NCBI RefSeq assembly: GCF_044324785.1
Contig: NZ_CP172127.1
DNA: 64,000 nucleotides
Source: Escherichia coli
Lineage (GTDB): Bacteria; Pseudomonadota; Gammaproteobacteria; Enterobacterales; Enterobacteriaceae
Reading direction: 5' to 3' (one strand)
Numbering within the stretch: the first letter of the stretch is position 1; every line of letters begins with the position of its first letter. The notes beneath the pieces were generated by a model. That model was not told where the DNA came from. It ran no database searches and saw nothing but the letters and a program-made list of their open reading frames with translations. A program made the position numbers and the translations under genes. Below, piece after piece: positions 3,713-4,359 of the stretch.

Positions 3713-3901
3713 TCAGATAATTTCCGGTGATGTTTCCAGCGCATCCGCAATCAGTTTTTCGCCGCGCGGCCTGGAGCGGGTCAGCGCATTTGCCAGCGTG
3801 GAAGACGCCAGCCCGGCCCTGCGGGAAACCTCAGCCAGCGATGTTCCCTTTTTTCTCAGGCCCGCGATAATATCGGCGGGGTGCCAGTCGGGTTGCATCA
3901 T
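3713..3901 (-). CDS. Ner-like DNA-binding regulator (Nlp/SfsB family)
   Basis: 62-aa protein with WHPADIIAGLRKKGTSLAEVSRRAGLASSTLANAL, closely matching the Ner/Nlp HTH signature; start overlaps stop of the upstream gene. Confidence 0.8.
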   Translation of the reverse strand: MMQPDWHPADIIAGLRKKGTSLAEVSRRAGLASSTLANALTRSRPRGEKLIADALETSPEII

Positions 3902-4359
3902 GCTGGCCTCCCGTCGATAACCTGTATGCCGTCAGCAGTACATATCCAGCGTGGGGCGTTCAGATTGGCGGCAAAATACCAGACCAGTTCGCACAGCAGC
4001 CCGGTCAGCGTGGTTTCGGTTTCCGGCAGCAGCACGTGGCCGTTCAGTATCTGCGTCAGCGCCAGGCAGTAATCGCAGAGTGATCCTGCATCAGGCTCAA
4101 AACCGGGTGAAACATCGGGAAGATCATTCGTAATAAACCCGTCAATCAGATGTGGTGGGATCGGCTCGTTCAGCGTGGGCCGCAACAGTGCAAGACAGGT
4201 ATTAAGCCTGCCACAGAGCGCCGTTTTCAGCGCCGGATCGCAGCACTCGATGAGCGTTGTGGCAACGCGATCGCAGTACTCCGCCAGATCGGTGAAATCG
4301 GTAGCGGCACTAAAGGGAACAGCAAGTAAATTGCATTCAGAGGTGAGAGTAGTCGCCAT
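3898..4359 (-). CDS. hypothetical Cys-rich protein co-transcribed with the Ner-like regulator
   Basis: 153-aa ORF with 10 Cys (CC, CDYC motifs), ATGA overlap with downstream gene. Confidence 0.5.
   Translation of the reverse strand: MATTLTSECNLLAVPFSAATDFTDLAEYCDRVATTLIECCDPALKTALCGRLNTCLALLRPTLNEPIPPHLIDGFITNDLPDVSPGFEPDAGSLCDYCLALTQILNGHVLLPETETTLTGLLCELVWYFAANLNAPRWICTADGIQVIDGRPA

Follow-up and report, generated by a model that had tools for sequence, protein, structure and literature searches.

In the immI region of the plasmid prophages P1 and P7 (c4, icd, ant), the c4 antisense RNA recognizes its targets through two segments, which base-pair with a1/b1 on the upstream side and, near the ribosome-binding site of the following gene, with a2/b2 on the downstream side; sequence variants of c4 give rise to heteroimmunity (PMC12197685). 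The CI/seqA/seqC arrangement of P4 and the mechanism of IsrK have been described as well, and in Gifsy-1 of Salmonella (isrK-orf45-anrP) a processed stable RNA is found downstream of the isrK terminator (PMC4825925). The stretch of DNA analyzed here, referred to as the window, comprises 64,000 nucleotides from Escherichia coli (contig NZ_CP172127.1, assembly GCF_044324785.1) and contains near its start two minus-strand open reading frames (ORFs), one of 153 aa (4359..3898; named 'hypothetical protein' by RefSeq) and one of 62 aa encoding a Ner-type protein (3901..3713; named 'helix-turn-helix domain-containing protein'). A preliminary description made from the sequence alone had recognized the two as an ATGA-overlapped pair, and both were found again at these positions. 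Our analysis indicates, with a probability of about 0.72, that the pair represents the protein part of an antisense-RNA-gated operon, which belongs to the conserved backbone of an integrative tRNA-Asn island related to P4 satellites.

The immunity region of P4 (PLE, seqA, CI RNA, seqC, kil/eta, epsilon, ORF151, alpha) has the same order of elements as the locus in the window. When the P4 sequence (X51522) was scanned with Rfam, isrK/SeqA was placed at 8692..8615 and C4 (CI RNA) at 8507..8420, followed 54 nt further by a 65-aa ORF that we take to be kil; the corresponding distance in the window, from the 3' end of the C4 RNA to the start codon of the 153-aa gene, is 53 nt. This P4 ORF begins with MATTLTPSHPEF, and its first residues, MATTLT, are shared with the 153-aa protein (MATTLTSEC). 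The kil gene is reportedly the first to be translated after PLE, controlled by immunity and toxic when overexpressed, and its translation is said to prevent Rho-dependent termination; Icd of P1 is also toxic when overexpressed. Further features in common with P4 are a P4-type integrase at a tRNA gene and an RNA flanked on either side by sites complementary to it (for P4, see PMC4825925). In contrast to P4, the first ORF in the window encodes an acidic, predicted helical protein of 153 aa rather than the 65-aa basic Kil, with no homology beyond roughly nine residues, and the Ner gene, an EFASI RNA and a PF12835 recombinase are present instead of epsilon, ORF151, the alpha primase and sid/delta/psu. 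Given the same position and the shared MATTLT, but no relationship beyond it, the 153-aa protein is a positional counterpart of kil/icd and not a homologue.

The locus also has the two-segment RNA layout of P1/P7, with b2 next to the ribosome-binding site, but the genes that follow show no relationship to icd and ant, it is located in a chromosomal island rather than in a plasmid prophage, and it occurs in far more specificity types (35 combinations, see below). As in Gifsy-1, the leader matches Rfam isrK and an intrinsic terminator follows in most related loci; in Gifsy-1, however, the controlled protein is the antirepressor of a complete prophage, whereas here it belongs to another family, no prophage is present, and the window has lost the terminator by deletion.

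Antisense RNA, Leader, and Target Sites

An Rfam scan around the gene pair revealed a C4 antisense RNA, a c4-a1b1 motif, an isrK-like match and an EFASI RNA. The module starts on the minus strand with a sigma-70-like promoter that was read from the sequence (4620..4592; TTGCTG, 17 nt, TATTGT), occupies the position of the P4 PLE and of PisrK, and has TTGC and TAT..T columns that are conserved across loci. The SeqA/IsrK-like leader with the a1/b1 motif (4598..4546, minus) scored 43.8 bits against c4-a1b1 (gathering threshold 46.7) and 43.7 bits against isrK; the a1 target was located at 4560..4554 (TTAGCCT) and the b1 target at 4546..4535 (AGCCTCACTGAC), both on the minus strand. It is followed by the gene of a C4/CI-type antisense (immunity) RNA at 4501..4413 on the same strand (RF01695, 62.2 bits against a gathering threshold of 45), whose predicted loop b' (4458..4447, minus; GTCAGTGAGGCT) is complementary to AGCCTCACTGAC in b1 and to CTCACTG in b2, and whose predicted single-stranded segment a' (4442..4436, minus; AGGCTAA) is complementary to TTAGCCT in a1 and a2. 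Folding of the leader gave a z value of -4.5. The downstream targets on the minus strand, a2 (4408..4402; TTAGCCT) and b2 (4377..4371; CTCACTG), are located shortly before the start codon of the 153-aa gene. Perfect runs of 7-12 nt connect the RNA with all four targets in the window.

For comparison, 79 loci with genes related to that of the 153-aa protein were fetched from other Enterobacterales species, and the leaders of 65 loci were aligned together with that of the window (66 sequences). Pairing was found in 100% of the cells of helix a'-a2 (7 pairs, 5 of them with compensatory changes) and in 94.9% of those of helix b'-b2 (9 pairs, 6 compensatory), while the upstream helices a1-a' (7 pairs, 5 compensatory) and b1-b' (8 pairs, all 8 compensatory) were paired in 99.6% and 98.7% of cells, respectively. 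The internal helices of the C4 RNA were 99.5-100% paired, again with compensatory changes. When the partner was slid by 1-3 columns as a control, only 30-44% of cells were paired, and none of 500 shuffles matched the observed covariation. In an independent test, the RNA of each locus was matched against its own targets and against those of other loci. The longest perfect run was 7.0 nt for own a'-a2 versus 4.2 nt with foreign targets, and for b'-b2 it was 8.5 nt versus 5.0 nt; such values were obtained in 0 of 500 permutations. A total of 35 combinations of a and b specificities were present among 69 loci, so that nature offers dozens of presumably orthogonal specificities of RNA and target.

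A Shine-Dalgarno sequence was present in 66 of the 69 loci, and in 57 of them GGAGG directly followed b2 on its 3' side, with the start codon 8-9 nt later, so that the predicted RNA-target duplex abuts the Shine-Dalgarno sequence. Covariation thus shows a conserved predicted pairing of the leader-encoded C4-type RNA with its flanking sites, of which the downstream ones extend to the region where ribosomes would bind for the 153-aa gene. This gene is the first and promoter-proximal one of the pair, and the ATGA overlap that joins it to the distal Ner gene was kept in 28 of 30 Ner-bearing loci; this conservation where Ner is present argues for translational coupling of the two. Both genes are also annotated by RefSeq in identical DNA of E. 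coli strain N3, and at the level of sequence both ORFs were confirmed as real genes.

Other features were observed in the same region. In most loci an IsrK-type intrinsic terminator (GACGCG..CGCGTC, then a T-run) separates b1 from the C4 RNA, but the window (about 4525-4531; alignment columns 105-123) and six other loci have a deletion of it. The sequence AATACAAT (ATTGTATT on the minus strand) occurs three times, at 4594-4601, 4650-4657 and 4674-4681, within or upstream of the module promoter and in one case overlapping the -10 element; these three ATTGTATT repeats may represent an operator, although their shortness precludes a judgment. RefSeq coding sequences named 'ash family protein' (L002 9513-9671 and L004 9624-9782 among the fetched loci) coincide with Rfam C4 matches, and Phage_ASH (PF10554) matches a translation across the CI RNA gene of P4 (X51522 8420-8507); the name 'ash family protein' may thus have been given to what is in fact non-coding RNA. 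Longer 'fusion' homologues of the 153-aa protein were found to be read-throughs across the RNA gene (PF10554) and were discarded as uninformative with regard to domain fusions.

Proposed Control of the Operon

As annotated here, the putative operon runs on the minus strand from the promoter through the a1/b1 leader, the C4/CI-type RNA, a2/b2, the 153-aa gene and the ATGA-joined Ner gene to the EFASI RNA and a second recombinase, and it converges on the P4-type integrase. Its parts recur among the 79 loci: the C4 RNA was detected by blastn in about 60, a PF12834/PF12835 recombinase in 27, EFASI in about 11 and a convergent P4-type integrase in about 29, while a Ner gene lies directly downstream in 37, with a few of these copies degenerate. 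By analogy with P1, P4 and Gifsy-1, the C4-type RNA would presumably be cut from the leader of its own transcript, and its two exposed segments would pair with a2 and with b2, next to the Shine-Dalgarno sequence. We propose that this pairing blocks translation of the 153-aa protein in the resting state, and that through ATGA coupling and polarity the Ner gene and the genes further downstream would be blocked too. The a1/b1 sites of the leader would compete for the same RNA segments, and an excess of leader, or the loss of the RNA, would relieve the block. The most likely role of Ner is that of a regulator of the Cro/Ner type acting on the promoter of the module itself, and for the 153-aa protein we favor, from its position, a role as a kil/icd-like first early product with an activity of its own.

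Several observations weigh against this reading. The promoter TTGCTG-17-TATTGT is weak by consensus and was not listed by a strict promoter scan. In hhalign comparisons only 19 residues of the 153-aa protein could be aligned with P4 Kil (probability 12%), and there was no detectable homology to epsilon and ORF151 of P4 (hhalign) or to P1 Icd. A distant homologue of the protein is encoded in a P4-like satellite that has no C4 RNA (L086 7607-7900). Repression rather than activation is proposed here by analogy only, and in Gifsy-1 the SeqA-like IsrK RNA activates the translation of downstream genes (PMC4825925). Finally, about half of the loci consist of the RNA and the 153-aa gene with a terminal hairpin, and have neither Ner nor any other downstream gene. 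In these Ner-less loci the family is still under purifying selection, with a ratio of nonsynonymous to synonymous substitution rates (dN/dS) of 0.29, which indicates that the 153-aa protein has its own function, unexplained by a pure gate model.

These results place a pair so far annotated as 'hypothetical protein plus HTH', with HTH standing for helix-turn-helix, in the context of a predicted P4/P1-type antisense-RNA switch; among complete E. coli genomes, about one in four carries this pair. The switch marks the conserved edge of islands that carry Rhs or type VI secretion system (T6SS) toxins or anti-phage functions as cargo.

A New Protein Family Encoded by the First Gene

A profile search with the 153-aa protein, which had been proposed in the preliminary description as a check, yielded zero matches in Pfam, NCBIfam, PHROGs and PADLOC, and nothing was found by a profile search against PDB sequences. 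The AlphaFold2 model (predicted local distance difference test score of 77, predicted template modeling score of 0.72) is mostly helical with six helices and two short C-terminal strands, and Foldseek retrieved only generic helical bundles from PDB and BFVD (best E 0.15 and 0.08, respectively). The calculated isoelectric point is 4.1 for the protein in the window and 4.5 as the median of the family. With a dN/dS of about 0.25 (0.23-0.29) and homologues that form at least 196 clusters when grouped at 90% identity and have 233 representatives when grouped at 50%, the 153-aa protein is, on these predictions, a member of a new acidic helical family under purifying selection. The family is confined to islands of Enterobacterales, is rare on plasmids and is essentially absent from phage genomes; as a new family at the kil/icd position its function is now directly approachable. 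In the P4-like satellite L086, with the order int, AlpA, ..., 153-aa homologue, two small ORFs, primase, the distant homologue opens the early operon before a DUF927 primase, an observation in favor of the proposed P4-related operon. A divergent 61-aa ORF and two repeated GGTGGTGTTCAC boxes are found there in place of the C4 RNA, suggesting that the role of the RNA switch is taken there by a repressor protein.

The preliminary description had emphasized the cysteines of the 153-aa protein, and the copy in the window indeed contains ten, including CC and CDYC motifs. This richness is, however, peculiar to the window copy, since the number of cysteines in the family ranges from 4 to 10 and conservation is limited to C29 and C95, to the exclusion of CC and CDYC. 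A metal-binding or redox function suggested by the ten cysteines was therefore rejected, given also the mostly helical prediction with no match to a fold with a metal site. A type II toxin-antitoxin system, as the order of a larger gene coupled by ATGA to a small helix-turn-helix gene might suggest from its resemblance to higBA-type operons, was rejected as well, since half of the loci are without Ner and yet keep the 153-aa gene under purifying selection, and no toxin or defense family was matched. Both explanations are regarded as very improbable.

The Ner-Type Protein and Its Relation to Rhs

The second gene was correctly assigned in the preliminary description to small Ner-type DNA-binding proteins. 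Its product matches PF13693 with 83 bits (cut-off 25) over profile positions 1-58 of 75 and shows clear sequence similarity to Mu Ner (1NEQ, E 6e-18), to SfsB (Nlp) of E. coli and to EnrR of Edwardsiella (E 3e-15), although with 90.3 bits it remains below the cut-off of 150 bits of the SfsB/Nlp equivalog NF007670. In the window the codon for Trp in EIIWPSRY is changed from TGG to TGA (EII-TGA-PSRY, with PSRY upon read-through), and the protein thus ends at 62 aa before the conserved C-terminal IWPSRY segment that full members of the family possess, while the old frame continues to about 3650. The Trp of HWPKGE is also lost (HWP to SRP), so that both conserved Trp residues are gone. Other intact copies (n = 29) have 68-82 aa, and full-length Ner in other E. 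coli has 84 aa; parallel decay was found in other E. coli copies, and some alleles retain both the 84-aa Ner and GGAGG.

The pair was initially described as located upstream of an Rhs gene and as a possible regulatory module for the expression of the island or of Rhs. It does adjoin the Rhs gene (4881..9062, plus strand), but the two are divergent and not co-oriented, and while the relation to an island was borne out by the backbone and the tRNA-Asn site, a specific link to Rhs was not. Among the 79 loci from other species, an Rhs gene was present within 10 kb in only 2, no conserved gene or sequence was found upstream of the module promoter in the 79 loci, and the nearest upstream ORFs (72 loci) span 91 Pfam families such as GNAT, DUF4917, type I restriction and AbiEi, several of them matching PADLOC defense models. 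Similar results were obtained when 5426 complete E. coli genomes were searched for specific junctions: the module adjoins Rhs in 200 genomes and tssG of the T6SS in 31, compared to 538 with a junction to hsdS of type I restriction and 261 with a junction to a reverse transcriptase, or about 231 genomes with Rhs or T6SS junctions versus about 799 with restriction or reverse-transcriptase junctions. At tRNA-Asn genes the E. coli backbone carries Rhs genes or whole T6SS clusters as cargo, and its remnants at thrW adjoin type I restriction, reverse transcriptase and AbiE genes. The pair is therefore widespread independently of Rhs, which the preliminary description itself had named as a finding that would speak against its proposal. 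The association with Rhs characterizes a single lineage of islands and not the pair, and Rhs is cargo of this island copy.

These data also bear on the possibility that Ner, with or without the 153-aa protein, regulates Rhs or T6SS cargo, for example by countering H-NS. EnrR, which the Ner protein resembles, is an island-encoded activator of the Ner family that acts on type III secretion system and T6SS genes via H-NS displacement (PMC9023278), the tRNA-Asn islands of Escherichia combine the same backbone with T6SS clusters or Rhs genes, and the spacer at 4650-4880, which is shared with the Rhs promoter region, is AT-rich. On the other hand, the module far more often adjoins unrelated cargo, module and cargo occur in more than one relative orientation, and the Ner protein in the window is truncated and devoid of both conserved Trp residues. 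The EnrR consensus was not enriched either, its sole match in the spacer having 3 mismatches and the whole window containing 9 matches versus 4.8 expected, and EnrR-type genes are part of a different island backbone and are not preceded by a C4 RNA or a 153-aa gene. Since EnrR activates T6SS genes, an effect of full-length Ner on AT-rich cargo promoters is possible; as an explanation of the pair, regulation of the cargo is nevertheless quite unlikely, and the pair in the window should not be read as an Rhs regulator.

Solitary Cassettes

The Ner-less loci point to another explanation, in which promoter, antisense RNA and 153-aa gene form a self-contained unit resembling a type I toxin-antitoxin, addiction or abortive-infection system, with Ner and recombinase as add-ons. 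This explanation shares the RNA control with the gated operon and differs from it in the purpose of the unit, the RNA holding in check a putatively harmful or phage-interfering protein. The solitary units, consisting of promoter, leader, RNA, targets and gene, measure about 0.75 kb, the shared region extending from position -330 or so to about +450, counted from the start codon; they have sharp borders with a hairpin right after the stop codon and occur in up to five copies per genome at unrelated sites. Purifying selection on the gene persists in them without Ner, the module survives in decayed islands (the window and the thrW remnants), and its neighbors are often defense genes. As in type I toxin-antitoxin systems, a cis-encoded small RNA is predicted to pair where translation of one neighboring ORF would start, and compact, self-contained cassettes in multiple copies exist. 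No pair of co-resident copies shared both specificities (0 of 31), which is not significant with only 1.2 shared pairs expected. Unlike in type I systems, the RNA is co-directional with the gene and located in its leader instead of overlapping it in antisense, and the protein of 145-153 aa is large, acidic and soluble-looking rather than hydrophobic and thus differs from known type I toxins. In addition, PADLOC and Pfam contain no match to it, and the sharp borders could also have arisen from recombination at a conserved module. Taken together, we consider this explanation improbable, though to a lesser degree than regulation of the cargo.

A similarly low credence is given to a broader version, according to which the module would represent an unrecognized RNA-gated effector cassette derived from satellite-phage immunity that guards or stabilizes defense and competition islands and persists after their decay; if this were true, cross-talk between co-resident cassettes would be prevented by the two-segment code, which has at least 35 combinations. 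Examples of solitary cassettes, with a 145-aa gene, were seen at L014 8835-10988 among other places, and one was located inside a che operon between tar and cheW.

Decay of the Copy in the Window

In contrast to most loci, the window lacks the Shine-Dalgarno sequence after b2, which has changed from CTGGAGGC to CTGTAGAC and is one of three such cases in 69 loci. Together with the truncation of Ner and the disruption of the second recombinase, this indicates that the module in the window is decaying, as far as can be read from its DNA. The question arises whether in this genome the pair is a non-functional relic, of which the RNA may still be made while the proteins are expressed little or not at all and are not under selection. 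This would agree with the rarity of the Shine-Dalgarno loss, the nonsense mutation and the HWP-to-SRP change in Ner, the fragmented second recombinase and an integrase that is a pseudogene in near-identical strains, as well as with the deleted IsrK-type terminator and the parallel Ner decay in other E. coli copies. However, many strains share an intact 153-aa ORF of identical sequence, perfect complementarity has been kept between the RNA and each of its four targets, and translation is possible without a strong Shine-Dalgarno sequence. A relic is thus a serious possibility for this particular copy, to which we assign somewhat less than even odds.

The Island and Its Surroundings

With regard to the gated operon as part of an island, the DNA around the pair corresponds to an island of about 10.5 kb at a tRNA-Asn gene, which is bounded by a 20-nt att repeat of the 3' end of the tRNA. 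The attR copy of this repeat was found at 9956..9975 (plus strand) as an exact match to the direct repeat in L001, with 0 expected by chance, while the tRNA-Asn gene is located just outside the window; in strain N3 the identical DNA is a small island next to the tRNA-Asn gene between yeeO and yeeN. The 3' part of the P4-type integrase gene, with Phage_int_M and Phage_integrase domains, occupies positions 1..850 on the plus strand. Integrase and immunity-type RNA are the only P4-like components, as no alpha primase, epsilon, sid/delta/psu or AlpA was found in the 10.5-kb island.

Downstream of Ner on the minus strand, the EFASI RNA (2978..2851; RF02957, 100.8 bits versus a gathering threshold of 51.2) lies just before the second tyrosine recombinase gene, a position that is the same in L004 and other loci, and the pairing of EFASI with the recombinase recurs in related loci. 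A STAXI motif was sought between Ner and EFASI, and none was found. The recombinase gene (PF12834 and PF12835) is disrupted into fragments at 2388-2795 and 2188-2415 on the minus strand; a fragment of 135 aa gave Pfam matches of 5e-41 and 5.6e-14, RefSeq marks the gene as frameshifted, and the intact recombinase in L004 has 294 aa. In the AT-rich and ORF-poor gap between integrase and second recombinase there are two copies of a 131-nt direct repeat (1052-1182 and 1280-1410) with 73% identity.

On the other side of the module, the cargo consists of the Rhs toxin gene with DUF6531, whose coordinates are given above, and a gene for a TPR/Sel1 immunity-like protein (9065..9667, plus strand), both identified by Pfam and RefSeq. 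The C-terminal tip of Rhs and the TPR/Sel1 gene (8400-9667) have a G+C content of 0.32-0.42 compared to 0.55-0.65 in the Rhs core, as is typically seen where a toxin/immunity module has been swapped. Another tRNA-Asn gene, adjacent to a tRNA-Ser gene (25228-25303, minus strand, and 26295-26384, plus strand), contains the same 20-nt att core, and in E. coli O145 this second site is occupied by a T6SS island with a backbone of int, recombinase, Ner, 153-aa gene and C4 RNA.

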